64,000 nt of DNA, from assembly GCA_002839445.1 (NCBI GenBank), contig PGYB01000006.1, positions 64,001-128,000 on the forward strand, written 5' to 3'. Of this stretch, positions 6,733-21,329 are shown in pieces. Source of the stretch: Candidatus Riflebacteria bacterium HGW-Riflebacteria-1 (GTDB lineage Bacteria; Muiribacteriota; Ozemobacteria; Ozemobacterales; Ozemobacteraceae). Positions within the stretch are counted from its first letter, which is position 1; each line of letters starts with the position of its first letter. The notes under the pieces are model-generated. The model was not told where the DNA came from. It saw only the letters and a program-made list of their open reading frames with translations, and made no database searches. Made by a program: the position numbers and the translations under genes.

Positions 6733-7323
6733 TCAGCCGGTGATTGCCCTGAGAATCTGGTTGCGGAGCTTGCCGATGTTGGCTTTTACGGCTGGTGGAA
6801 AGGGCAAAACGAACGCCTGCTCGGCCGTATCGCTGACAAAGCGGATGACAGCGCCGGAAAGCCCCCTGCCCTGCAGTGCTTCAGCGAAAAAGAAGCTTTC
6901 CATATCGACCAGGCTGGCATTGTGTTTTGTTGCCAGCTGTTCGCGGCTTTCTTTTGTTGTTGCCGGCTGATCAACCGTTACTATTGCTGCTGTCGGCAGA
7001 TCTGTGGTGTTCGGTAAATCGAGCTTGCGGTCGCCATAAATAAGCGTGTTGCAGCAGAACAGCTGGCCGATTTGCAGATCAGGCGTGAGCGCGCCGGCGG
7101 CGCCAAAAAGAATGACACGCAGATAGCCGGCGCGAGCAAGCTCGCGCTCCAGCAGCGCGATCAGCGGGGCACAGCCCGCCGCGTTGGCAGTGGCCAGCCG
7201 CCCGCCTGCGAAAGTCCAGGATGTTGCGTCGGTTTGCCGGCAATCGGGCAGAATGCCGGCCAGCAGTCGGGCTTCAGCCTTGAACGGCGAAAGAATAAGC
7301 GTTTTTCGTTCTGACGGGTTCAC
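6733..7323 (-). CDS. MTA/SAH-nucleosidase or PNP-family hydrolase (futalosine-hydrolase-like size)
   Basis: VDMESFFFAEAL and IRFVSD match the MTAN motifs VEMEATAIA and RAISD. It is about 196 aa. Confidence 0.7.
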   Translation of the reverse strand: MNPSERKTLILSPFKAEARLLAGILPDCRQTDATSWTFAGGRLATANAAGCAPLIALLERELARAGYLRVILFGAAGALTPDLQIGQLFCCNTLIYGDRKLDLPNTTDLPTAAIVTVDQPATTKESREQLATKHNASLVDMESFFFAEALQGRGLSGAVIRFVSDTAEQAFVLPFPPAVKANIGKLRNQILRAITG

Positions 7324-8369: not shown

Positions 8370-8572
8370 TGAATATCCTCAGGGGTTCTGGCCGGGCAAC
8401 TGTGAACCGGCTGCAGAATCTCACAGTTACCAAATCTTTCGTTGTCTTTGTCCGCAATACGAGGCGTTGTAGTTATCGGCATCCATTGAAAATGATAACG
8501 AGCAGAGGGTGATGCTGCTGTAATAATCGTATATTTTGCGTCCGGATTTGTTTTTTGAATTAGTGCAAGCAT
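8366..8572 (-). CDS. Small hypothetical ORF; may instead be an AT-rich promoter spacer
   Basis: 68-codon ORF whose stop overlaps the radical SAM gene start. GC is lower than in the flanking genes and it has no recognisable motif. Confidence 0.2.
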   Translation of the reverse strand: MLALIQKTNPDAKYTIITAASPSARYHFQWMPITTTPRIADKDNERFGNCEILQPVHSCPARTPEDIQ

Positions 8573-8575
8573 GCG

Positions 8576-9433
8576 TCACAGCTCTTCGACGGCGGCAAAA
8601 ATCGCGTCGACCGCGGCCTGCGCTTCGGTCAAACGACCGCTGTGCCGGCGTGTCAGATTGCAGGTCAGCTGAATACCGGGCTTTGAAAAAGTCTGGTCAA
8701 TTTTTAAGCTGATGCCGGGTGGCAGAGGGTTCTGCTCAAGCGCCCGCGCGAATTTGTCGAGCACATCGGTTCGCCGTGGTTGCGCCAGGCGCTGCAGGTT
8801 TTCGAGCACCTCGGCAGCGTCGTTACCAGGAAGATTCCCGGCAGCATCTTTGCCATGCAGATTTTCTGGCAAGACGCCTTTTCTCTGGGCCTGCCGCAAA
8901 AACATGGCGATATTGCGTTTTTCTGAAACTGTGCCGGGCATCTGCAGAAGCGGCAGAGCAAAACGAGCAATGTCCTCACCAAGATGGCCAAGCTCGCGCC
9001 AGATGTTAAGTGGCAGTTGCTGCGCAGGCTGTTTGCTACTGGCCAGAATATTGTCGGCAATATATCTGAGGGCCAGCTGCAGCTGCGGCGAATCAGCTGT
9101 GCCGGCACTGCTGAAAAAAGACGCTTCAGCACCAGCTTCTACCCCGGCAAAAGCTGCCGCCAGCTCAAAAGCGCTCAATTCTCGATGACTGTTCAGCTGC
9201 GTAAAAAGCAGCGCTGGCGACCCAGCTGCTTCAATGCATGGCGCGCTGGCAAAGCCAAGCTGTTTGAGCGCAGTCAATCGCCGGTGCCCGTCACAGAGCA
9301 TGTTCTGGCTGATAACCAGCGGCTGCAGAACACCGTATTCTTTGATACTGCGCACGAGATTATCGTCTGGTGCTGGAGTGGCAGAGCCGAGCAGCGGCTT
9401 AAGATCTTTTACGGGAACTTCAAATATTTTCAT
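8576..9433 (-). CDS. ParB/Srx N-terminal domain protein (ParB-like nuclease/CTPase fold) with an uncharacterised C-terminal region
   Basis: N-terminus GVLQPLVISQN...DGHRRLTALKQLG is a ParB box II-like GxRR motif. Confidence 0.7.
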   Translation of the reverse strand: MKIFEVPVKDLKPLLGSATPAPDDNLVRSIKEYGVLQPLVISQNMLCDGHRRLTALKQLGFASAPCIEAAGSPALLFTQLNSHRELSAFELAAAFAGVEAGAEASFFSSAGTADSPQLQLALRYIADNILASSKQPAQQLPLNIWRELGHLGEDIARFALPLLQMPGTVSEKRNIAMFLRQAQRKGVLPENLHGKDAAGNLPGNDAAEVLENLQRLAQPRRTDVLDKFARALEQNPLPPGISLKIDQTFSKPGIQLTCNLTRRHSGRLTEAQAAVDAIFAAVEEL

Positions 9434-9749
9434 GATGCCGAATTGTAACGCATCCCGGCATCTCCAGCAAGCAATATCAGTGAGCTCCGGTTAATCGCGA
9501 ACTACTCTGGCAGCAGGATACCGGTTTAGTTTTGCCGAGATGTTGATTTTCAGCAACTGAAGACAAGACGCCCTTTCCTGACTCAATGAGTTCGTTTGTA
9601 ACAGAATTGTTTGCTTAAAATGCAGTTTAATTCTGCCACAAGCGAATTAAAATTGAATTCCTGAAAAGCTAATAATTTGGTGCGATCTGGATAATATCGT
9701 TGTATTATCGCTCTGGTCAGTGAATAGATTAACAAATGGAGAGTCGCTG

Positions 9750-10208
9750 ATGCAGTCACCACAACAGAAGGTTTTCTACTATAAGCATGGCTGGAGAACG
9801 CTTTTCACCGTTGATACATTGTTCGTCTGCCTGATGATGCCAATCGCTTTTTATGGCTTTGCTCTTCTTTTGTTCGATAAATATGCTTTTCATACGATGC
9901 TTGTCTATGCTGTGATCGCCTTCATTCTAGCGATAAAAAGAGTCTTTAATGATCCGGTGCCTTTTGTCTGTAAGACTTCACAGCATCTGATAATTAATTA
10001 CGCAATGTTCGGTTTCATTTACAAATCTTACAAAATCGTGCTCGATCAGATCAACAATGTTGAAGTCTGGGAAACAACCTACAGAGGTGCAAAATCTGTT
10101 TACCTCAAGATTACAGCTGCAAAAAAAGTATTTAAAGTTCATGAAGAACTTTTGCAGTCCGCCAGTGATATCAATAAGATAGAGCAAACCATTCGCGAAG
10201 CTATGTAA
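9750..10208 (+). CDS. Membrane protein with two TM helices and a cytoplasmic domain, in an AT-rich segment
   Basis: GGAGAG lies 6 nt upstream of ATG 9750; a start at 9720 is an alternative. Two hydrophobic helices are followed by a soluble domain. Local GC is clearly lower than in the neighbouring DNA. Confidence 0.5.
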   Translation: MQSPQQKVFYYKHGWRTLFTVDTLFVCLMMPIAFYGFALLLFDKYAFHTMLVYAVIAFILAIKRVFNDPVPFVCKTSQHLIINYAMFGFIYKSYKIVLDQINNVEVWETTYRGAKSVYLKITAAKKVFKVHEELLQSASDINKIEQTIREAM

Positions 10209-10216
10209 ACAAGCTA

Positions 10217-12208
10217 CTAGCGTTTGCGTTTGAAAAGGTTTTCGAGGCCTTTGAGCAGTTCTTTGGCGGGGTCGGTCTTTTTGGTTGCGGGGGCGGTTTC
10301 GGTGCTGGCTGGTTCTTTGCTGCGGGGGTTCAGGATATCCTGCAGTATTTTCTGTCCTTGACGCTGCAGGCCCAGTTCAAGGAGTTTTCCTGAATTGAAG
10401 CCGGGAAAGGAGGGTGCCGTCAGAGTGCCTTCGACGCGGCTCGGCATGTTGGCGGTTTTGCCGTCGAGAGAAATCTGCCGCAGAACCTGGCTTTTAGCTA
10501 CAGCTGCCGGGGAGAAACTGATTGTGATGTTGCCTTTCAGGCTGGTGTCGAGACCGATATCGCCGCGATAATCAGCCCTGCCGGCTGAACTTAGAAAATT
10601 CAGGTCGTTGGTTGTCATAATTCCCTGATGGAGAACGAAAGTCCCTCTCGCTTCGGTTATGTCGCCCGAGGAAAATTCTTTGAGGTTGACCAGTGACAGA
10701 AAAGGTGTCACGACTGGCGGCGTGTTGTATCTGCCGTTTTGCATGAGCAGACTGCCGTTGCCGTTCCATGACGCGAGGGTTTCGACATCGCCGTCTGCTT
10801 TTAAAGTTACTCCCACTGGCCCGGTAATTACCTGCTTCTGTGTCGTGTTGCTGTCGAGAAAAGATTCGACGCGTAAACCGCTGGCCCTGGCATTAATCTG
10901 CAGCTGAACCGGATGTTTGTCATGAAAAACCTTGCCACTGCCGTCGAGAGTGCCGCCGAAAAGCTTTGCCTGCGCACTGGTGATGGTAAAATCATTCCCG
11001 GCATAGCTGAAACTGGCGTTGACATCGAGAAACGGAAATACGTATGAGCTGCGATTTGTCGACGATACCGGCACAGCAATATCAAAGCGCGGAACAAAAG
11101 CCGATCCGGTCAGAGAAAACTTTGTCGCAGCGCTTTCAGCCTGCAACTTTGCTGAAAGCTTATGCAATTCTATTTTTTTATCAGGAATAGAGAGTGAGGC
11201 ATCGGTAATCGCGATGTCGGCTGAAACCAGGCCGTCAGATATTTTTCCGGTTACCGCCATAGTGGCTGAAACTTGTTTAATTTCAGGGCTGGCGTTGTAG
11301 ACAATAGAATCGACATCGTGCAGACCAGCTGAGAACGAGAACTGAAGGGGCGCCGCTGCTGCCATGGCAAACTGGAGTTCTGCACCAGTTTTGCCGCCGG
11401 TCAGTCGCAGACCGTCGATGCGGTCTGGCATGAGTGCCTTGATGATTTCAAACAGGTTTTCGGCCGACGACGAGTCAATACTCATCGAACCTGAAGCCTG
11501 CAGAGGCGTGAGCGCCTGTGCTTTCAAGCTGACCTTTACTGGCAGCATCGAGGTTGCTGTAGCGTTCTTGGCGCCGGGCAGAGAAGCGTTACCGTTGAAA
11601 TCGACGGCTAATTCTTTGCCTGACTCAGATCTGGTAGCCGTTAGCGCGGGCAACTGTAACAGCACGGTTTTATTGGATTTTTGTGAAGTTACCCGCAGCT
11701 CAAACTTGCTGCCAATAATCTTATCAAAAGGAAGGTCTTTGATGCCTGATTTAAGACCAGACGAGACCGGCTTTTTTATGTCGCCCGGCACCGGCTTTTT
11801 TATATCGCCCAGCACGGGCTTTCCATCGGCATCAAGACTTACAGTCGCCTTTAATGACTTTATATTTACTTCTTTCATGACCAGATTGCCGCCGAGAAGA
11901 CTCATAAAATCGCAGGTAGCAGACAGTTCTTTTATCTCAGCCGAGGGCAGTTCTGGCCGTGCAGGGTCGCCGATTTTGACACCGGTCAGTTTAACGGTCG
12001 CATAACTGATTTTATAGTCTTTGACGGCAACCGGCATGCCAGCCAGTTCAGAAATTTTCTTTTCGAACTGCTCTTTGATGCTTATGGCCTGCTGTTCTTC
12101 GGCAGACAGCATGGTGGCTGCGAGCAGCGCAAAGCAGAATAATGCGACGATAGCCTTCCAAAAAGCTCGCCTTTGCGAGGAAAAGGGTAAAGTAATATTT
12201 CTGGTCAT
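10217..12208 (-). CDS. AsmA-family protein (N-terminal signal anchor, long periplasmic beta-rich region)
   Basis: N-terminal TM anchor, size of 663 aa and overall composition are typical of the AsmA/TamB-like family. It has an internal duplicated GDIKKPV segment. GAGAGG RBS is present. Confidence 0.6.
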   Translation of the reverse strand: MTRNITLPFSSQRRAFWKAIVALFCFALLAATMLSAEEQQAISIKEQFEKKISELAGMPVAVKDYKISYATVKLTGVKIGDPARPELPSAEIKELSATCDFMSLLGGNLVMKEVNIKSLKATVSLDADGKPVLGDIKKPVPGDIKKPVSSGLKSGIKDLPFDKIIGSKFELRVTSQKSNKTVLLQLPALTATRSESGKELAVDFNGNASLPGAKNATATSMLPVKVSLKAQALTPLQASGSMSIDSSSAENLFEIIKALMPDRIDGLRLTGGKTGAELQFAMAAAAPLQFSFSAGLHDVDSIVYNASPEIKQVSATMAVTGKISDGLVSADIAITDASLSIPDKKIELHKLSAKLQAESAATKFSLTGSAFVPRFDIAVPVSSTNRSSYVFPFLDVNASFSYAGNDFTITSAQAKLFGGTLDGSGKVFHDKHPVQLQINARASGLRVESFLDSNTTQKQVITGPVGVTLKADGDVETLASWNGNGSLLMQNGRYNTPPVVTPFLSLVNLKEFSSGDITEARGTFVLHQGIMTTNDLNFLSSAGRADYRGDIGLDTSLKGNITISFSPAAVAKSQVLRQISLDGKTANMPSRVEGTLTAPSFPGFNSGKLLELGLQRQGQKILQDILNPRSKEPASTETAPATKKTDPAKELLKGLENLFKRKR

Positions 12209-12690
12209 AATGTTTGCCTCTCGTATGTCTGGTTTGGCGGTGATTATTAACAGCTAACACCTATATTTGGGGGAGATCTCAGTCTCCGAAGCTGTCTCAG
12301 GTATCTATGAGATCGCTAAGACATCTTTCTGGTGCCTCGCGATGACAGGAATCATCTCTATATGGGTGTTTAACAAACCCCTGACCTAAAGATATGCATA
12401 ATACACCAAGAAAGCGAGATAAAAATGACGGTGCAGGATTTGTGAATTATTACACAGTCGAAAACAGCAGTTATTTCCAGGTCAACGTCGCCACCACTGC
12501 CCACGTCACCCGCAAAAAGTTGCTCACAGACTTTTTCGAGTCGTTTACCATGAGCTGGTAACGCTTCTTTTACTGAAACACAGATTTATCAAAAAAAGTT
12601 CCCCGAAGCTCCTCGAAATCGTGCGAATGGGTATTGCTGGTTGGGCAAATTTTCATTAAAATATAGATAAATATTTTAGGAGGATTTGAC

Positions 12691-13314
12691 ATGCTTTGTA
12701 GTAAATGGTTCAAAACACTGGCACTGGTAATGTTTTTTGCTGGTCTGGTTTCGGTTGCGCAGGCGGCCACTTATGGTTATATGGTTGTGCGCGGCAAGGA
12801 TCAGGCTATGATTGAACGCGAAATTACGACGATCGAGCGCCTGATCAAGACCTGGCCCAACGGCGAAGTTCTTTATGTTCATACCGTTAAAGCCGGCGCC
12901 ATGTTTTTCAAGCGCATTACCTCGACAATATTCTTTGCCGGCAACCGCACCGAGATTTCGAAATTCCTCACCCAGGGGCCCTATGAAGGCGATTATCTGC
13001 GTGACATTACCGTCAGCTTCAGCTACAGCAGTCTGCGCGACAAAAATGGTTACGATGGCGAAATCAACACAACTTTCACCCGCAAGTTTACCAATATCCG
13101 CAAGGCTGTTGAAACCGTGCAGGGCAAGAATGCCGAGATCCTCTGGAACGAGCTGAAAGACAGCAAGGTTTCTGCTTATAAAAAGCACCTGGTCAGCGAA
13201 GAACTGATCGCACCGCGCGTCAGCGTAGTGTTTTACAGCATGCAGCCAACCGAAGACAACCGTCTGCTCGGTATCAGCTACAGCGCAGACAAGGTCAGCA
13301 ACAGCCGCAAGTAA
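12691..13314 (+). CDS. Secreted hypothetical protein
   Basis: Strong AGGAGG RBS. Signal peptide MLCSKWFKTLALVMFFAGLVSVAQA. The longer antisense ORF 12676..13494 is judged spurious. Confidence 0.6.
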   Translation: MLCSKWFKTLALVMFFAGLVSVAQAATYGYMVVRGKDQAMIEREITTIERLIKTWPNGEVLYVHTVKAGAMFFKRITSTIFFAGNRTEISKFLTQGPYEGDYLRDITVSFSYSSLRDKNGYDGEINTTFTRKFTNIRKAVETVQGKNAEILWNELKDSKVSAYKKHLVSEELIAPRVSVVFYSMQPTEDNRLLGISYSADKVSNSRK

Positions 13315-13447
13315 TATATCGCACGCAAGAAGCGCTTTGGCATTAATGCTGCCAAGGCGCTTCTTTTGTATACAAAGGAATGAATCAATTTGGCGACATG
13401 TTTTTTCGTGAGGAATCAGAGATACTGATGAGCGATTGGCCAGTCGG

Positions 13448-13500
13448 TCGATTACGATCAGGATTCCGATTACGATTACCGCTGCGCTGAGCACGATTAA
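13448..13500. repeat. Weak copy of the CGATTA-hexamer intergenic motif (locus A)
   Basis: tcgattacgat...ccgattacgattacc...cacgattaa upstream of the cyclase operon. Confidence 0.4.
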
Positions 13501-13569
13501 AGCATTTTAGTTGCGCGACATTCAATGGTAGTAATATAATTAGTAACAGTGGATCAGGGAGCGTGAATC

Positions 13570-14373
13570 GTGAAAACACAGGCGATTGAGCGTATTGTAA
13601 ACAGTTTTGACACCATGCAGTTTTCGACTGACAGGCTGGCAACTGATTTTCTTGACGTGCTGGCCAGACTCGAAGATGCTGCGATACAAAAGCGCTTGCT
13701 GCAGGAACTGATCGGAAAATATGTAGAGCTGGAAAAGCGCGTCGATGGCTTGCTGCGCAATACGCTGCCTGAGAGCGTAGCCGACGAGATAAAATTCAAC
13801 AGTGAATACCCGCCGCGGGCGTTTGCAGGCACCATTTTCTTTTCTGACTGCGCCGGCTTTACCAGACTGGCTGAAAAAATGTCAGCTGAAGTTCTTATTG
13901 AGAGGCTTCATCTACTCTTTTCCGGCACTGACAAAATTATGGCGCGACATGGTGGCACCAAGATAAAAACCATCGGCGACTCATACATGGCTTGTTTCGG
14001 AGCGCCGATTGCGCAGGCTGAACATGCCCGTCGAGCAATTGATGCCGCGCTCGATGTTATTGAATTTCTGCGGGAATTCAATGCCGGCCAGCCTTTGCCG
14101 ATTGAAATGAGAATAGGCATACATTCTGGTAAGTTCATTGGCGGGGTTGTCGGCAAGGATCGCATGCAGTTCGACATATTTGGCGATACCGTCAATACTG
14201 CATCGCGCTTTGAATCATCTGGCGAAAAAGGCCGGGTGAATATATCCGGTGACACTTTCGAGCAGGTTATTAAATATTTCAACTTTGAAAGCCGTGGCGA
14301 AATCTCGCTGAAGAACAAGGATCCAATGAAAGCATATTTTGTAACAGGCCGCCAGAAAGAAGCGGCGAGGTAA
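13570..14373 (+). CDS. Class III adenylate/guanylate cyclase with an N-terminal coiled-coil-like region
   Basis: CHD motifs FFSDCAGFT, GDSYMACFGAP, IGIHSGKFIGGVVG and FDIFGDTVNTASR. GTG start with AGGGAG RBS. Confidence 0.8.
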   Translation: MKTQAIERIVNSFDTMQFSTDRLATDFLDVLARLEDAAIQKRLLQELIGKYVELEKRVDGLLRNTLPESVADEIKFNSEYPPRAFAGTIFFSDCAGFTRLAEKMSAEVLIERLHLLFSGTDKIMARHGGTKIKTIGDSYMACFGAPIAQAEHARRAIDAALDVIEFLREFNAGQPLPIEMRIGIHSGKFIGGVVGKDRMQFDIFGDTVNTASRFESSGEKGRVNISGDTFEQVIKYFNFESRGEISLKNKDPMKAYFVTGRQKEAAR

Positions 14374-14376
14374 TAA

Positions 14377-15186
14377 ATGGATATAAACGGTAACTACAAT
14401 CGACCAGTCAAGGTCGCTGATGGCATTTTCTGGATCGGCGTCTACGAACCTGAAGCTAATCTGCACTGTAACGCCTATCTCCTGGTCGAGGGTGAACACG
14501 CGCTTATAATTGATGGCGGCAGTCGCCCTGATTTTGCCAATATCATGATGAAGATACTGCAGGCCGGCGTTCAGCCACAAAAAATTGCTGGCCTGATTTA
14601 TCAGCACTACGACCCTGATTTGTGTGGTTCTCTGTCTAATTACATTGATCTTTGTGACAACAAAGATCTGAAAATATACTCAAAAGCCAGTAACAATATG
14701 TTTTTACGATACTACTTTGAGAAGAGCCATCATGCAAAGCTTACTGACATTGGCGTCAGCAATTACGAGCTTGATTTCTATGGTCGTCGGCTCAAGTTTA
14801 TCAAAACCCCTTACACTCACGCGGCCGGCAGCTTTGTAACCTTCGATGAGCTCACCGGCACGCTTTTTACCAGCGATCTGTTTGGCAGCTTTTCCCAGAA
14901 ATGGCGACTTTTTGAGGAATTTAACGACGGGTGCCTTACCTGTAATGAATATGGCAATTGCCCCAACCATGTTGATTATTGTCCGTTGCCTGACCTGATA
15001 AGTTTTCACCAACATGTCATGCCATGCAACAAGTCGCTGTCATATTCGATGGGATTGCTTGAAAAACTGCCGGTAAAAATCATCGCACCACAACATGGCA
15101 GTGTTTATAACAAAAAGCGCGATATCGCATTTCTGATTTCGTTGCTTAAAGACCTTAAAGAAGTTGGAATGGACGCTATCGCCTGA
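14377..15186 (+). CDS. Metallo-beta-lactamase-fold protein resembling the diiron domain of flavodiiron/ODP proteins; it has no flavodoxin domain
   Basis: Segments LLVEGEHALIIDGG, YQHYDPDL (degenerate HxExDH), APQHG. Unusual CLTCNEYGNCPNHVDYC four-Cys insertion. Only 3 nt separate it from the cyclase gene. Confidence 0.55.
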   Translation: MDINGNYNRPVKVADGIFWIGVYEPEANLHCNAYLLVEGEHALIIDGGSRPDFANIMMKILQAGVQPQKIAGLIYQHYDPDLCGSLSNYIDLCDNKDLKIYSKASNNMFLRYYFEKSHHAKLTDIGVSNYELDFYGRRLKFIKTPYTHAAGSFVTFDELTGTLFTSDLFGSFSQKWRLFEEFNDGCLTCNEYGNCPNHVDYCPLPDLISFHQHVMPCNKSLSYSMGLLEKLPVKIIAPQHGSVYNKKRDIAFLISLLKDLKEVGMDAIA

Positions 15187-15211
15187 AATCGATCTAGAAA
15201 GGAATGCTTTA

Positions 15212-15667
15212 ATGTCAAAAGTACAGGAGTTGCTCGATCTGATTGATGCTTTTACTGCTAACGAGCTGGCGCTTGCTGGTTATTACGAGCTTTGCGCCGA
15301 AAAGTTTCCGCAGGAGAGTGAGCAATGGAAACGGCTGATGGCCGAAGAAGAAATGCACGCACAGGTTTTCAGAAAAATTCGCAAATCGGTTGAAGAAAAA
15401 CCCGAAATGTGGAAAATCGGGCGTTTTACGATACAGACGGTTAATCTGATCTGCAAGTCGGTTAAAGACAAAACCGAAGAGCTTAAACGGGGATCAATAA
15501 ACCCCAAGTATGCGATAAATTTTATCGCAGATGTTGAGCAGTCACTTATCGAAGGTAATATCAGCAAGTCGCTTGATACAGAAGTTGAAGAGTTTCGTGC
15601 CCTCCTCAACAGAGTTCAGGAAGACACCACCGGGCACAAACAGCTGCTTCTCAGTCTGCGAAAATAG
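15212..15667 (+). CDS. Ferritin-like / rubrerythrin-like four-helix-bundle protein
   Basis: ELALAGYYELCAEKF...EEEMHAQ gives an E...Y plus ExxH diiron-carboxylate-like half-site. AAGGAA RBS lies before ATG 15212; the in-frame ATG at 15164 is an alternative start. Confidence 0.45.
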   Translation: MSKVQELLDLIDAFTANELALAGYYELCAEKFPQESEQWKRLMAEEEMHAQVFRKIRKSVEEKPEMWKIGRFTIQTVNLICKSVKDKTEELKRGSINPKYAINFIADVEQSLIEGNISKSLDTEVEEFRALLNRVQEDTTGHKQLLLSLRK

Positions 15668-15674
15668 CTGTTTT

Positions 15675-16211
15675 TCAGCTGGCTGCAGCTGGTTTGCGAT
15701 TATAGAAGCCGAGAATAATGCCGAGAGCGACCGACCATACGGCGGCAAGGCCGATTTGGTAAGGCTTTGGCAGAGCGAAAGTTACGCTGTGCGCCGGGAT
15801 CCAGAACCAGAGCAGCGACATGAAACCCTTGTCGATGTTGGCCCAGTTGCTTTTGCGCGCGATAAGATTGTCGAGCAGGCGATGCATCAGCACGAGAAAC
15901 GGCCCGAACTGAAGATTGGTCGCTGTCGAGATCGCTATTGCCCTGCCCCACCCGCTGAGCTCGGGCAGCATTTTGTGCTGCACCAGCGAATCAACAAAGC
16001 CGGCAAAGCCGGTAAAAGCGTATTTGATAAGAACAGCCAGTATAGCCCATTCAAGCATTTTCGCCAGCAGCGTGGCAAAGCCAAATGGCTTGCTGACGCG
16101 GCTTTCGATGATCCATTTGGCGATGACGTCGCCGAAAGTGCCGAGAACGGCAAACTGCAGCATGGCGGACACTATTGGCCAGGTAGTTACAAATTCAATA
16201 TAGTTCTGCAT
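15675..16211 (-). CDS. Integral membrane protein, hypothetical
   Basis: Several hydrophobic helices. The overlapping plus-strand ORF 15531..16274 is judged spurious. Confidence 0.5.
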   Translation of the reverse strand: MQNYIEFVTTWPIVSAMLQFAVLGTFGDVIAKWIIESRVSKPFGFATLLAKMLEWAILAVLIKYAFTGFAGFVDSLVQHKMLPELSGWGRAIAISTATNLQFGPFLVLMHRLLDNLIARKSNWANIDKGFMSLLWFWIPAHSVTFALPKPYQIGLAAVWSVALGIILGFYNRKPAAAS

Positions 16212-16247
16212 GAAGTATTCTCAATCTTTCAATTTAATCAGTTAATC

Positions 16248-16754
16248 TTAAGTAGTCGACTCTTCAAGGGTTAAAATAACGAGATCGCCGATTTTTTCGC
16301 TGGAAACGTAAATTACCGTTCTACGGTCATCGAGCCATTCAAATTCAGGACTGGCAGGGATACGAGTTTTGGGAAGCCCCGTTGAATGAGAGTAGCGCAT
16401 AGCCTGAAGCATGATACAGCTTCGACATTTATCTCTTCGACCGCAGCCTTCCGGTTCTTCTGCCTGTTGGCATTTTAAAACGTTGCCACATTTCATTCCG
16501 CGAATCTGGTCAGGCGTTACAGCTGAGATCTCAATCGCTTTACGGTTTGCGGCTAAGACGTTTTCTTCTGGGTCCATGACCAGAACAGGCCCCGGAAATC
16601 TGTCCAGAAATTCCTGCATTGGCTCAGACATAGTTTCGAACATCTTTCTTGCACAATTTGAGCAGATACCATGACTGATCAGGCGCGCAGGATGTTCGAC
16701 CTGATGGTCGGTTCCTGAAATTTTGCCGCACCAGGCGCATTTGTGTTGCATCAC
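16248..16754 (-). CDS. Cys-rich (zinc-ribbon-like) hypothetical protein
   Basis: CAWCG...ICSNCA and CGNVLKC...CGRRDKCRSC cysteine pairs. Confidence 0.5.
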   Translation of the reverse strand: MMQHKCAWCGKISGTDHQVEHPARLISHGICSNCARKMFETMSEPMQEFLDRFPGPVLVMDPEENVLAANRKAIEISAVTPDQIRGMKCGNVLKCQQAEEPEGCGRRDKCRSCIMLQAMRYSHSTGLPKTRIPASPEFEWLDDRRTVIYVSSEKIGDLVILTLEESTT

Positions 16755-17212
16755 TCGCTCCTCTGCTCTAAAACAGTTATTGGCATGCCGGGCTTGATAA
16801 TACCACCTTCGAGTATTTCGGCGCGCAGGCCACCGCGGTCGTGCATGGCGGTAAGCAGATCAGCGGCGAGCATCTCTTGCAGATAGCGGCATGGCTGGCA
16901 GAGTTCCCACGCGTAAAGAAGAACTTCGCCAACGCGAAACCTTTTGCCAAGCAGGCTGTTAAGTTCGATACCCTGCGTTATCAGGTTGCGTCTGAAATCA
17001 CCGGGGGCGAAATCGCTGCCAAGCTGGCGGTTACACGCCTGTATTGCCTCGATAGACTGCAGGGTAATCGCGCCTTTATTGGCAACATCGCTGTTTTCTA
17101 CAAAATAACGGTCGCCAACCAGGCCGCAGTCGGCTCTGGCAAAAGCTTCGCCGCGTTCAACCGTTTTGCTGCCGGTCTGGTCGCAGGTAAATATCTGTAT
17201 TATTTTTGCCAT
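16751..17212 (-). CDS. MOSC-domain protein
   Basis: YAWELCQPCRYL carries the conserved MOSC cysteine. About 150 aa. Confidence 0.75.
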   Translation of the reverse strand: MAKIIQIFTCDQTGSKTVERGEAFARADCGLVGDRYFVENSDVANKGAITLQSIEAIQACNRQLGSDFAPGDFRRNLITQGIELNSLLGKRFRVGEVLLYAWELCQPCRYLQEMLAADLLTAMHDRGGLRAEILEGGIIKPGMPITVLEQRSE

Positions 17213-17898: not shown

Positions 17899-18261
17899 CT
17901 ATTGACGGTTAAGAATGCTTTTGGCGCGGTAGATCGACCCGAGATTATAGACATTGGCATACTGCCTGCCGCGAAGAATTCTGCGAGCCAGCGCTGATCT
18001 GGTGCCGCTGAGGCAGTAAACCAGCAAAGCCTGCTGCCGGTCAGGCGCAACACTTGTGATTTTTTCACCGAGCTGGTCAAGTGGAACATTGATTGCATCT
18101 TCAACATGGCCGGCGGCATATTCTTCAGCGCTGCGAACGTCGATAATGACAGCACCGGCATCTTTGAGCTCGCGCGCTTTCTGAGGGCTGATCTGACCCA
18201 GTCGTTTGAGCAGAAAAAAAATAATTATTGCCGCGATAATGATTAATTGTGAGTTTTCCAT
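17899..18261 (-). CDS. Rhodanese-domain sulfurtransferase with an N-terminal membrane anchor
   Basis: IIDVRSAEEYAAGHVEDAINVP...YCLSGTRS active-site Cys loop. Confidence 0.75.
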   Translation of the reverse strand: MENSQLIIIAAIIIFFLLKRLGQISPQKARELKDAGAVIIDVRSAEEYAAGHVEDAINVPLDQLGEKITSVAPDRQQALLVYCLSGTRSALARRILRGRQYANVYNLGSIYRAKSILNRQ

Positions 18262-18293: not shown

Positions 18294-21200
18294 TCAACTG
18301 AATGAGCCGTAGGCATGGTCTATTTCGACCTCACCGGACTCGAGCACTCTTGAGTCTTCAATGTTGTGGTAAACCAGAAAGATGCCCTGGCGGCCGTCCA
18401 TAACGACACCGAGCTTGTTCGAAAGTCGGGAGTGGGTGAAATACTTGTGCCGCTTAACCACCGGCTGGCTGCGCAGCCAGTTCCAGTCTATAAAGCCCTC
18501 GCCGGAGTCCTGGCGAACAGAGAAATAACCGATACCCATGGTGGTGACATTATGAAAGAAATGTGAACCCATCGAGGGGTCAACCCTGAAGCCTTCGAGC
18601 GAATACTCAATTATTACCTTGGCATAAGAAGTCTGTGGCCAGGTCACCGGAATGCCGAGCCAGCGATCGCGAGTGCCCCAGCGTCCGGGTCCGAGAAGAA
18701 TGTATTTTCTGCCGGCTTCTTTGTGCTCAAGGTTAAACGCCTCTACTTCGCGTGCCATCTCTTCGGTCTGTGACTTGTCGAAAAGATCAGGATCGATCCA
18801 GACGATGTCGCTGATCTCGTCGATACGGCCGTTACCCATGCCAGAATCAGCGTAGAGCATCAGTTTGTCTTTTTCGATACAGCTCTTATCGATGTTGAAA
18901 TCTTCGCTTTCTCGCAGCATATGTTTGAGTTGCAACAGATAGAACACCGGCTTGTCAAGGTTCTCAGCATCAACGTCTACGGCAAATTCAATCTCTACAG
19001 GAGTTTCGAGAGCTTCTTCTGAAACATTAAGAATATGCTTGATCGTTTTTGCAAGAGGTATTGATTCATACTGCAGAATATTGGCAAAATTGATCACCCT
19101 TGGGCCGCGCATCTGAAGACCAACGTCAAGGCGTTGTTCAAGATGACTCCATGTCGATACTACCTCTTGCAGAGTTCCGTCGGCTTCGGCTGCCGAAATA
19201 TCGAGCTTGACCAGCGTTGCGTCTTCGCCATTAAACAGATCAACTGTGTTCTTTTCGAGGTCGAGAACGGTAAAACGGCGCTGCGAGTTTTTGACCAGCT
19301 CTTCCGGGGTGAGAATCTCTAGTTTGGGAAAAGTCGGGCAGAATCTGAACGATCTTTCGCCACCGACGACATTGCGCCCCAACCCCAGCACCAGCATGCC
19401 AACCCCATCTTCGGGTTGAATGTACGAAAACGGATAGTAGTTAAACGATTGACCGACACCCGAAATCTGCGGGTAAAAATTATGACCGTGCCGTCGCCCG
19501 ACGATCTGTTGAATAACAACCGCCATCTTTTCTTCTTCGATGTTGTAGTTGATCGCGTCGAAATATTCGCGGGCTTCTTTTGAATATACCGAGGCGTATA
19601 CCAGCTTTATTGCCTCTTCAAGCTGCTTGAGGCGCACTTCTGCATCAGGATGATTGTTCGGTATGAAAAAGGTTTCATAAAGGCCTGACATCGAATGCGA
19701 AACCGAGTCTTCCAGTACTCCTGATGAGCGTATGGCCAGCGGGTAAGTAACCTTCTGCAAGACAATGCGCAGGCGATTGAGTATTTTCTCAGACAGTCGG
19801 CTTGCAATGAAGCGGCGTTTGATCGTCGCGTAATCGCGCTCAGACGAGACAAAATCGGCAAGATCGTTGGTCGTGATAAAATTGGTGAATTCATCGACAC
19901 CGATTATAAAGGTCTCAGGTATTCTGACCACGATGTCTGATACCGCTTCAAGCATCGACGAATTATAAAGCAGATAATTCATAAAAGCGATGCCACGACC
20001 TTTGCCGCCAATGGCGCCCTCGGCCAGTTTGCAGATGTGATGCCGGTTGTCGCCAATAAATGATTTATCAAAAGAGATAACCTTGCCGCGGGTCTTCATT
20101 CTGAACACCCAGTTACCCATGTTGATCAAAAAGTCGCGCAGTGACTCGACTTCATCAAATTCAGCAACATGAATACGTGACACAACCTTGGCAATCTGCA
20201 CCTCTCCGCGCGCCAGCAGCCAGGTCGAAAAGTTATTGCGACTGGCATGATACTCAATCGACTCAGCCGGTACAATGCGCAGACAATTGCGAAAATCGCC
20301 CATAGTGCGCGCTCGCGTAATTTCCTGACCCTGTGCGTTTCTGAATACGAAATCGCCAAAACCGAGATTCCGGTAGAAAAATTTAGACAGGCGTTTGGAA
20401 AGGAATTGCGATTCTTTGTGAACAAACGAGGCTCCGATGCGGTTCGCAGCCGATTCAATTTCTGGTTCGGAAGACTGTAGCAGAATTGGCAGGTCTGGTT
20501 GCAGCTCTTTAAGTTTCTTGGCCAGTTTTATACCGGCTTTTTCATCCAATATCCCGTCTTTTTTGTATTTAACATCAGAAATAACGCAGAGCAGGTATTC
20601 TTTATAATGTTCATACTGCTTCATGGCTTCTTCAAAATTTGTTGCCAGGATGATCTTGGGGCGACAACGCATGCGTAATACTTTTTTGCTTTCTTCCTGA
20701 AGCTCTTCTTCGACAAGTTTGGTCGTCTGCCGGATCAGCTCAGAATATAGATGTGGCAGATAGCGTGAATAGTAGCGTATCGAGTCTTCAACAAGCAGTA
20801 TAATGCGCACCTGAGCGATTGCCGTGTCTTTATCTGCATTGCGCCGGTCTTCAATATATTTGATCATCGCCAGAAAGATTTCTGAGTTGCCGTTCCAGAC
20901 AAAAACGTTGTCGTAATGCAACCAGAGATCACCCCGGTTATCAAGCGACTCCAGGTCGGTGTTGTCGTTGAGTAAAAGCAGCACAGGCAGGTCAGGCCAG
21001 AGTTCGTGAATTTTCTGTCCGCAATTGATGGTATCAGTTTTGCTCAATCGGCTCAGCACAACCACGAGGTCGAACTTGCGGCGCTCAAGCATCTCGATCG
21101 CCTCATCGGCAGACGTTACGCTGGTAATGCGCGGCGCACTGGTCAGATTGAGATTAAAATATTCACCAAAGATTTTTTCAGCGAGAAGGCCGTCCTGTTC

Positions 21201-21329
21201 TAGGGAAAATGCATCGAATACAGTCGCTACCAGCAGCAGTTCGCGCACTTTAAAGCGCATCAGGTCGTGAAAAATTTCGCTGTCAGACTTGAATTTTTTA
21301 AAGACCTGCATCAGTTCATCGTTGTGCAT
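18294..21329 (-). CDS. Large protein with tandem receiver-like (REC) domains fused to a PEP/pyruvate-utilising (PPDK/PEP-synthase N-terminal, ATP-grasp) domain
   Basis: N-terminal CheY-like segments. Central KLAEGAIGGKGRGIAFMNYLL resembles the GGKGANLAEM nucleotide-binding motif. 1011 aa. Confidence 0.65.
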   Translation of the reverse strand: MHNDELMQVFKKFKSDSEIFHDLMRFKVRELLLVATVFDAFSLEQDGLLAEKIFGEYFNLNLTSAPRITSVTSADEAIEMLERRKFDLVVVLSRLSKTDTINCGQKIHELWPDLPVLLLLNDNTDLESLDNRGDLWLHYDNVFVWNGNSEIFLAMIKYIEDRRNADKDTAIAQVRIILLVEDSIRYYSRYLPHLYSELIRQTTKLVEEELQEESKKVLRMRCRPKIILATNFEEAMKQYEHYKEYLLCVISDVKYKKDGILDEKAGIKLAKKLKELQPDLPILLQSSEPEIESAANRIGASFVHKESQFLSKRLSKFFYRNLGFGDFVFRNAQGQEITRARTMGDFRNCLRIVPAESIEYHASRNNFSTWLLARGEVQIAKVVSRIHVAEFDEVESLRDFLINMGNWVFRMKTRGKVISFDKSFIGDNRHHICKLAEGAIGGKGRGIAFMNYLLYNSSMLEAVSDIVVRIPETFIIGVDEFTNFITTNDLADFVSSERDYATIKRRFIASRLSEKILNRLRIVLQKVTYPLAIRSSGVLEDSVSHSMSGLYETFFIPNNHPDAEVRLKQLEEAIKLVYASVYSKEAREYFDAINYNIEEEKMAVVIQQIVGRRHGHNFYPQISGVGQSFNYYPFSYIQPEDGVGMLVLGLGRNVVGGERSFRFCPTFPKLEILTPEELVKNSQRRFTVLDLEKNTVDLFNGEDATLVKLDISAAEADGTLQEVVSTWSHLEQRLDVGLQMRGPRVINFANILQYESIPLAKTIKHILNVSEEALETPVEIEFAVDVDAENLDKPVFYLLQLKHMLRESEDFNIDKSCIEKDKLMLYADSGMGNGRIDEISDIVWIDPDLFDKSQTEEMAREVEAFNLEHKEAGRKYILLGPGRWGTRDRWLGIPVTWPQTSYAKVIIEYSLEGFRVDPSMGSHFFHNVTTMGIGYFSVRQDSGEGFIDWNWLRSQPVVKRHKYFTHSRLSNKLGVVMDGRQGIFLVYHNIEDSRVLESGEVEIDHAYGSFS

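Follow-up and report, generated by a model that had tools for sequence, protein, structure and literature searches.

We examined a stretch of DNA of 64,000 nucleotides (nt) from Candidatus Riflebacteria bacterium HGW-Riflebacteria-1 (contig PGYB01000006.1, positions 64,001 to 128,000), hereafter called the window, that carries three consecutive genes for a predicted adenylate cyclase, an oxygen-binding diiron protein (ODP) and a ferritin-like protein. The cyclase and the ODP probably constitute a modular sensing unit, in which the ODP acts as the detachable sensor of a cyclase that has no sensor of its own and cyclic AMP (cAMP) is the output. The open reading frames (ORFs) concerned, with lengths in amino acids (aa), are as follows.

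13570..14373, plus strand: ORF1, a class III (IIIa-like) adenylate cyclase without a sensor; 267 aa, GTG start, Pfam PF00211
14377..15186, plus strand: ORF2, a stand-alone ODP-family diiron protein with a metallo-beta-lactamase (MBL) fold; 269 aa, Pfam PF19583, with matches at the level of fold
15212..15667, plus strand: ORF3, a ferritin-like (diiron-carboxylate type) helical-bundle protein; 151 aa, from a family without a Pfam model

A sensor-less cyclase beside a stand-alone ODP

A Pfam scan of ORF1 yields the Guanylate_cyc domain (PF00211) at residues 88–259, with an E-value (E) of 7.7e-50 and a score of 169.5 bits against a cut-off of 21.9, and no domain besides. The closest solved relatives found by a sequence search of the Protein Data Bank (PDB) are the mammalian cyclases AC8, AC9 and AC5 (170 bits for mammalian AC) together with mycobacterial Cya. 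Two parts of the protein can be distinguished.

13831..14346, plus strand: cyclase catalytic domain, residues 88–259, with D93, D137, K133, D202, N209 and R213 invariant
13627..13794, plus strand: conserved N-terminal helical segment, residues ~20–75, a proposed adaptor helix for coupling to the ODP that leads into a motif like the cyclase transducer element, LLRNTLPESVADEIK

Eight orthologues all retain the metal-binding residues D93 and D137 and the transition-state pair N209 and R213, and these four align with their counterparts in AC8 and AC9. Equally invariant are K133 (in KTIGD) and D202 (in QFDIFGD), which we take, from established knowledge of class III cyclases, to be the pair that specifies adenine. 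Guanylate cyclases carry Glu and Cys at these Lys and Asp positions. Because metal-binding, adenine-specifying and transition-state residues are complete in one chain, class III rules predict that ORF1 is an active homodimeric adenylate cyclase. The initial annotation, made from the letters of this DNA, had described a class III cyclase with no obvious sensor domain of its own; the strong Guanylate_cyc match and complete catalytic residues bear out the first part, and the single Pfam domain, with a conserved N-terminal helix as the remainder of the chain, bears out the second.

This N-terminal helix is conserved to an extent that suggests function. Residues 23–75 include 21 invariant positions among the eight orthologues, and conservation across residues 20–75 nearly matches that of the catalytic core. 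The helix immediately preceding the catalytic domain, LLRNTLPESVA, aligns with MLRNILPSHVA of AC8, where it lies ahead of the C2 domain, and ORF1 residues 56–263 align with residues 42–251 of Cya (5o5k). The cyclase transducer element is a helix that precedes class III catalytic domains and through which upstream sensors exert regulation (PMC5995499). ORF1 thus resembles class IIIa cyclases that have this element (the C1 and C2 domains of mammalian AC, and Cya/Rv1625c) in its catalytic residues and its pre-catalytic helix, LLRNTLPxxVA. Unlike these enzymes, it lacks a membrane anchor and any HAMP, GAF, PAS or further sensor domain, and only a conserved helical segment of ~60 residues lies upstream of the transducer-element-like motif.

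The catalytic domain also matches the PycC models of PADLOC (best E 2e-22, 77.8 bits), as might be expected if the cyclase made a cyclic nucleotide alarm signal in a Pycsar-like anti-phage system. However, this score is far below those for Guanylate_cyc and mammalian AC and reflects shared class III ancestry. Moreover, no effector (a transmembrane or TIR protein with a domain that binds cyclic nucleoside monophosphates (cNMPs)) is present, ORF2 and ORF3 have no meaningful matches to defence proteins, and the pair is conserved vertically among core-genome neighbours rather than in defence islands. A role in phage defence is scarcely credible.

ORF2 matches the Pfam model ODP (PF19583) with E 1.2e-47 and 162.8 bits against a cut-off of 27.2. 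The only other match in the Pfam scan is Lactamase_B, with no flavodoxin or rubredoxin module, and ODP homologues of ORF2 span 257–286 aa. The best PDB sequence matches are the ODPs 6qrq/6qwo (E 1.3e-17) and 6qnm/6r9n (E 7.9e-11), followed by flavodiiron proteins. The same order is recovered by fold: an AlphaFold2 (AF2) model with a mean predicted local distance difference test (pLDDT) score of 90.3 retrieves ODP chains as its top eight Foldseek matches (E 1e-19 to 1e-15, template modelling scores of 0.78–0.83), and the diiron cores of flavodiiron proteins come next. Three sets of residues in ORF2 are of particular relevance.

14605..14619, plus strand: metal ligands of ODP motif 2, H77-Y-D79-P-D81, in alignment with HQDPDV of the two solved ODPs
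15091–15096, plus strand: Q239-H240, the last pair of the further ligand candidates H148, D167, Q239 and H240; invariant, with PQHG aligning with the solved ODPs
14932..14982, plus strand: four-cysteine (Cys4) insertion C186-x2-C189-x5-C195-x6-C202, a candidate extra metal or redox site with invariant Cys

All seven ligand positions (H77, D79, D81, H148, D167, Q239 and H240) are invariant in 70 ODP homologues. As set out in one published account (PMC7785958), a Gln in motif 5 of ODPs takes the place of the third His of motif 2 as a ligand; it corresponds to Q239 of ORF2, which lies within an invariant APQHG. Motif 2 of ORF2 reads HYDPDL, which is neither the zinc-binding HxHxDH nor the HxExDH of flavodiiron proteins. 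We are therefore confident, at the level of sequence, in assigning ORF2 to the ODP family, since it has every sequence feature of ODPs and lacks those of flavodiiron and hydrolytic MBL proteins. A flavodiiron protein was rejected because of the HYDPDL motif, the missing flavodoxin domain and an NCBIfam flavorubredoxin score of 38.6 bits against a cut-off of 635. A hydrolytic zinc MBL (glyoxalase II, RNase J or a class II phosphodiesterase) was likewise rejected, as HxHxDH is missing and matches to hydrolase models are weak, partial and far below cut-off. The initial annotation had proposed an ODP-like MBL protein without a flavodoxin domain and had named confident placement in a hydrolytic family with an intact HxHxDH as the outcome that would speak against it. 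That outcome was looked for and not found, and both the PF19583 match and the rank of ODP structures by sequence and by fold agree with the proposal.

Class II phosphodiesterases are cyclic-nucleotide phosphodiesterases with an MBL fold. ORF1 and ORF2 might accordingly be a pair for synthesis and degradation, with ORF2 removing the cAMP that ORF1 makes, as hydrolysis of cyclic nucleotides is known for some MBL-fold proteins (PMC7785958 mentions UlaG). Yet ORF2 gave no match to any phosphodiesterase family, and its motif 2 is HxDxD with Leu replacing the fourth metal ligand and an ODP-type Gln, rather than the hydrolytic HxHxDH. In addition, ODPs of the same clade pair with kinases and phosphatases unconnected to cNMPs (see below). 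These features make a phosphodiesterase very improbable.

The Cys4 insertion sets ORF2 apart from characterized ODPs. Its four Cys (Cx2Cx5Cx6C) are invariant in the 70 homologues, 77 of 80 metagenome ODPs carry the motif, and the region is a gap in both solved ODPs. The insertion is specific to an ORF2-type clade. It probably holds a structural or redox-active metal.

Conservation of the pair and exchange of the output protein

Linkage between cyclase and ODP was assessed first among ODP homologues sampled at 71, 68, 62, 57, 54, 53 and 52% identity to ORF2, all seven of which have a cyclase directly upstream. The upstream proteins are 263–283 aa long, have a cyclase domain only, are encoded on the same strand and are spaced by -4 to +12 nt from the ODP, whereas other flanking genes are unrelated. 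A metagenome scan gave 538 confirmed matches; 80 of these were retained, and 75 of the 80 are non-redundant (sampled loci carry L-numbers). A cyclase lies directly upstream of the ODP in 49 of the 55 non-redundant metagenome loci with enough flanking sequence to be evaluated. ORF1 orthologues with 51–71% identity adjoin an ODP at all sampled loci, and this range parallels that of the ODPs (52–71%), which is consistent with co-inheritance of the two genes. The cyclase–ODP pair is a conserved core, and chance adjacency of the three genes is excluded by their recurrence in dozens of unrelated flanking contexts.

The source organisms are all anaerobes from sludge, sediment and groundwater and include Riflebacteria, Syntrophales and Syntrophorhabdaceae. 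One contig (L013, SABV01000218.1), labelled as an Erysipelotrichia metagenome-assembled genome, carries an ODP and an ORF3 that are ~67–70% identical to the Riflebacteria genes; the label is probably a binning error rather than a sign of horizontal transfer.

The six evaluable loci that lack an upstream cyclase (L090, L092, L099, L106, L088 and L070) are informative. In L090 and L092, the ODP gene is followed within ~50 nt by a gene for a HisKA plus HATPase_c kinase of 285–288 aa, and in L099 and L106 by one for a 326-aa SpoIIE/PP2C phosphatase (with an 11-nt overlap and a 10-nt gap, respectively). Two loci with a short upstream flank are alike in this respect: the ODP partner is a kinase in L085 and a PP2C in L107. 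A domain check of these six ODP-adjacent kinases and phosphatases revealed no sensor domain in any of them, and the ODPs beside them retain the Cys4 insertion and all ligands. L070 has no recognizable ODP partner. In L088 (2465–3983, plus strand), a gene for a 401-aa protein with two cNMP-binding domains stands directly ahead of a decayed cyclase fragment, the ODP and a convergent ORF3 relative; this protein is possibly an effector of cAMP that is tied to the module in this lineage.

A profile built from the first 86 residues of the cyclases was then compared with 3,948 six-frame fragments from 80 loci. Besides cyclases, the profile finds only the six ODP-adjacent kinases and phosphatases, with E 7e-7 to 0.06. 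The pattern that they have in common, L..LIE..A.E.D..I(Q/N)..LL..LV..Y(V/S)..E(K/R).L..L, stands directly ahead of each output domain. This segment is thus present in cyclases, histidine kinases and PP2C phosphatases that all lack sensors and all adjoin an ODP of the same clade.

The ferritin-like protein and the proposed mechanism

ORF3 gave no usable match when its single sequence was compared with Pfam, NCBIfam and the PDB, and a homologue search with that sequence found only 10 close homologues. A hypothetical protein recorded for HGW-Riflebacteria-1 is identical to it (100%). The gene could therefore have been taken as lineage-specific, but this is refuted by relatives with 26–35% identity (E 1e-16 to 1e-34) among the small unannotated neighbours of other cyclase–ODP pairs. 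A profile search produced 89 clusters, none with a Pfam domain and several labelled rubrerythrin by JGI, and an exhaustive profile search gave 2,542 representatives at E <= 0.001 (1,509 at E <= 1e-10). The family (window 15212–15667; P0121–P0353) includes some tandem duplications of 312–351 aa.

The AF2 model of ORF3 is a helical bundle with a pLDDT of 94.6 and a predicted template modelling score of 0.90. Foldseek returns ferritin-like folds with weak E-values, and the family profile matches 1vjx over its full length (E 0.012) as well as a rubrerythrin-like protein, a designed Due Ferri bundle and EncB. The threshold of the Pfam Rubrerythrin model (PF02915) is not reached (13 bits for ORF3 against 22.8), and sub-threshold matches occur in 18 of 83 members, the best with E 0.0012. 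Membership of the ferritin-like superfamily is established by fold, as the modelled chain is an up-down-down-up bundle. E18, Y25, W39, E46, H49, D107, E109, E114 and T123 are invariant in the family, and 82 of 83 members have H142. From the canonical ligand set, which comprises E (helix A), ExxH (helix B), E (helix C) and ExxH (helix D), ORF3 keeps E18, E46xxH49, E109 and H142. The initial annotation had read a ferritin- or rubrerythrin-like bundle with an ExxH motif from this gene, in keeping with E46-x-x-H49 and with the match at the level of fold. The nearest solved protein, TM1526 (1vjx), is a ‘putative ferritin-like diiron-carboxylate protein’ from structural genomics without an assigned function, to which ORF3 is ~17% identical. 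ORF3 differs from it and from the rubrerythrin–ferritin clan in scoring below the Pfam Rubrerythrin threshold, in having Thr139 in place of the helix-D Glu, and in its additional invariant acidic residues D107 and E114.

Of the 34 loci whose flanks suffice on both sides, 23 have an ORF3 relative beside the pair: downstream and on the same strand in 7, downstream and convergent in 11, and upstream of the cyclase in 5. Genes that stay linked despite rearrangement are, by a classic criterion, likely to be associated in function, here ORF3 with the cyclase–ODP pair. The initial annotation had staked its case partly on conservation of the trio elsewhere; the pair recurs as described above, and the third gene is often present but variable in position and strand. 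A converse scan of a genome collection for ORF3 relatives, with an 11-member alignment as the query, located 15 species-level loci, of which 6 have the full trio and 1 more has an ODP at the contig edge.

ORF3-like domains also occur in other architectures, which suggests a general module for regulation or sensing. The 283-aa protein P0176 joins an ORF3-like domain to a hemerythrin domain. In L023, a plus-strand gene (8511–10712) carries an ORF3-like domain at the N terminus of a MshEN plus T2SSE (PilB/GspE-type) ATPase, and two further ORF3-like copies lie beside a MASE1–PAS histidine kinase.

With a ferritin-like partner in place, the genes could also be viewed as an operon for oxidative stress or iron homeostasis, in which ORF2 and ORF3 scavenge O2, NO or H2O2 or store iron and the cyclase is merely co-transcribed, perhaps as a stress regulator, without being controlled directly by either protein. 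The homology of ODPs to the catalytic diiron domain of flavodiiron proteins, the resemblance of ORF3 to ferritin, Dps and rubrerythrin folds, and the flavorubredoxin and rubrerythrin labels that JGI gives to homologues would all fit. However, ORF2 lacks the flavodoxin or rubredoxin domain by which electrons would enter, and the ODP partners are three kinds of sensor-less signalling enzyme with a common N-terminal segment, for which detoxification has no need. Furthermore, the member of the set that can be dispensed with is ORF3, not the cyclase. We therefore judge a stress operon to be improbable.

Returning to the ODP as a detachable sensor, the following mechanism can be proposed. ORF1 would form a homodimer in which the conserved N-terminal helix, leading into the transducer-element-like motif, offers the entry site that upstream sensor domains usually use. 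The diiron centre of ORF2 would change state with the availability of O2 and/or Fe(II), as in the ODPs of Treponema and Thermotoga. One state of the ODP is then envisaged to bind the N-terminal helices of the cyclase, a physical interaction that we infer, and to alter the catalytic dimer so that the rate of cAMP synthesis changes, in either direction. ODPs of the same clade may control sensor-less histidine kinases and PP2C phosphatases through the same kind of adaptor helix. ORF3 most likely would supply, buffer or re-reduce the iron of the ODP site, or else might be a second sensor, for metal or peroxide. The initial annotation had argued from the general precedent of stand-alone ODPs that sense O2 or iron for a signalling partner, and that precedent is published: a chemoreceptor without a sensor of its own relies on an ODP to sense O2/Fe (PMC7666581, PMC6978683).

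By analogy with known ODPs, and because the source organisms have an anaerobic lifestyle, O2 and/or Fe(II) is the most likely signal. Given the Cys4 site and the ferritin-like partner, redox, NO or peroxide could be sensed instead. The same architecture might then serve a different signal, namely redox state, NO or H2O2 perceived through the Cys4 site (for example, as Fe-S or Fe(Cys)4) or NO perceived at the diiron centre, with the ferritin-like protein as a redox or peroxide partner. In line with this idea, the invariant Cx2Cx5Cx6C is specific to the clade and is not found in O2-sensing ODPs, the nearest enzymes after ODPs are flavodiiron proteins that reduce NO or O2, the ORF3 fold family includes rubrerythrin-type peroxidases, and one ORF3-like protein carries a fused hemerythrin domain. 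On the other side, no diiron ligand has been lost, not even the ODP-specific Gln, which speaks for a diiron chemistry preserved from characterized ODPs, and the Cys4 site may hold structural Zn instead of a redox-active metal. A signal other than O2 or Fe(II) is unlikely.

Several points weigh against the proposed sensing unit or narrow its claims. The function of the Cys4-ODP clade is one that we infer throughout, and the Cys4 loop is modelled with moderate confidence only (pLDDT 68–79). The N-terminal similarity between cyclases and kinases is weak (E ~0.05) and could partly reflect generic coiled-coil composition. A tblastn search of the window found no cNMP-binding homologue or effector. 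An ORF3 relative is missing in 11 of the 34 loci, and in L003, the only one of the sampled loci to have no ORF3, the ODP is followed instead by a Nitro_FeMo-Co (PF02579) gene on the plus strand (6886–7293). Conversely, ORF3-family genes occur with neither a cyclase nor an ODP within 8 kb in 7 of the 15 genome loci, where the neighbours are diverse (a glyoxalase with TetR, a nitroreductase). ORF3 is for this reason not dedicated to the module; it is a frequent accessory, neither obligatory nor exclusive, and the loosest member of the set. Finally, the position of the helix-D Glu is Thr139 in 81 of 83 ORF3-family members, with E, Q or D at position 138. Because this helix-D carboxylate is replaced, a canonical diiron site in ORF3 is plausible but not assured.

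A broader proposition can be put forward only tentatively, and we hold it to be rather doubtful: the Cys4-ODP clade, so far unrecognized, would be a universal detachable input module of anaerobes that docks on an adaptor helix common to cyclases, kinases and PP2Cs, and, where the output is a cyclase, it would form together with the new ORF3 family a three-protein O2, iron or redox switch that sets cAMP levels in Riflebacteria, Syntrophales and other strict anaerobes.

Precedents and local setting

The closest precedents are the ODPs of T. denticola (TDE2498/TDE2496) and Thermotoga maritima (6qnm, 6r9n, 6qrq and 6qwo). Like these proteins, ORF2 is a single-domain MBL-fold protein of the same Pfam family with the same ligands (HxDxD, H, D and Q-H), and is encoded beside a sensor-less signalling protein in an anaerobe. 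In contrast to them, it has the Cys4 insertion, is only ~21–25% identical in sequence, is paired with a cyclase rather than with MCP/CheA, and often has a linked ferritin-like gene.

Pairs of a gas sensor and an output enzyme are also found with other chemistries. Bacterial H-NOX proteins have histidine kinases or diguanylate cyclases as gene neighbours, and cyclases coupled to a hemerythrin or a globin follow the same principle. In these systems, as in the one proposed here, the gas sensor is a small metalloprotein that governs a cyclase or kinase, either separate or fused. They differ from it in using haem or hemerythrin where ORF2 would use non-haem diiron in an MBL fold, and in signalling through c-di-GMP or phosphotransfer where ORF1 would make cAMP.

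The logic of ODPs as plug-in sensors is likewise not new. The TREND case study (PMC7319448, Fig. S1/S2 legends) describes ODPs in operons with, or fused to, Pkinase, MCP, GGDEF/EAL, START and HD signalling genes, and ORF2 resembles these ODPs as a plug-in sensor recruited by different pathways. Class III cyclase, HisKA and SpoIIE/PP2C partners and a common N-terminal adaptor helix are additional to what is listed there. Full-text literature searches for an ODP or diiron protein combined with an adenylate cyclase returned nothing relevant, although the supplement of the 2019 PNAS paper on ODPs may show such neighbours. The ODP sensor family and its plug-in logic were thus known already, whereas the cAMP output, the Cys4 insertion, an adaptor helix common to three output types and the linked ferritin-like family were not found in the searched literature. 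A specialist would not find the module very surprising.

The module is of interest in that few inputs are known for bacterial class III adenylate cyclases and the route from O2 or iron to a second messenger is poorly known in strict anaerobes. It lends itself to direct testing, as the proteins are small and soluble, the cAMP output can be measured, and the sensor family has solved structures. If the interaction is real, it would represent a sensor–output interface that is portable across cyclase, kinase and phosphatase, and would inform both the evolution of signalling and the engineering of O2- or iron-responsive switches. The analysis also draws attention to a ferritin-like family of ~2,500 representatives for which no Pfam model exists.

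Within the window, all three genes were confirmed on the plus strand by reading the sequence. The three genes described in the initial annotation are present at the coordinates given, but the start of ORF3 has been moved. It had also noted that 3 nt separate the cyclase gene from the MBL-fold gene, which is what the TAA stop of ORF1 (14371–14373) and the ATG of ORF2 (14377) give, and ORF2 is probably translationally coupled to ORF1. The start of ORF3 is most likely ATG 15212 rather than TTG 15164, because a GAAAGGA ribosome-binding site lies ~8 nt ahead of this ATG and its orthologues all start at the equivalent Met. With this start, ORF3 has 151 aa and begins 25 nt past ORF2, without overlap. 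A putative control region precedes the genes.

13511..13569, plus strand: putative 5′ control region, read from the sequence, with a promoter-like element and a Shine-Dalgarno sequence ahead of the GTG start

The promoter-like element, TTGCGC-18 nt-TATAAT (13511–13540), is below the threshold of the scan used and is a weak candidate; a GGGAG Shine-Dalgarno sequence lies ~9 nt ahead of the ORF1 start. Scans for promoters and terminators gave no prediction in the region that exceeded the shuffled background, and an Rfam search of 12500–16500 found no RNA element or leader. The unit is bounded by a convergent gene on the minus strand (15675–16211), and ten flanking genes are unrelated to the module (a spore photoproduct lyase-like gene, an AsmA-like gene, a rhodanese, a response regulator with PPDK_N and others).

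Some neighbouring genes are of interest in themselves. L003 carries genes for NifU_N, two CbiA/ParA–Fer4 proteins and two more Nitro_FeMo-Co proteins nearby on the opposite strand, and so offers another context of metal-cluster handling. On the minus strand of the window (16248–17212 and 17899–18261), the gene for a Cys-rich 168-aa protein with weak PAS similarity is succeeded by one for a MOSC-domain protein, with a rhodanese gene close by; these Cys-rich, MOSC and rhodanese genes are not conserved beside the module at other loci. Further along the same strand, 18294–21329 encodes a 1,011-aa protein of unusual architecture, which combines similarity to response-regulator receivers with a PPDK_N (phosphoenolpyruvate-utilizing, ATP-grasp) domain.

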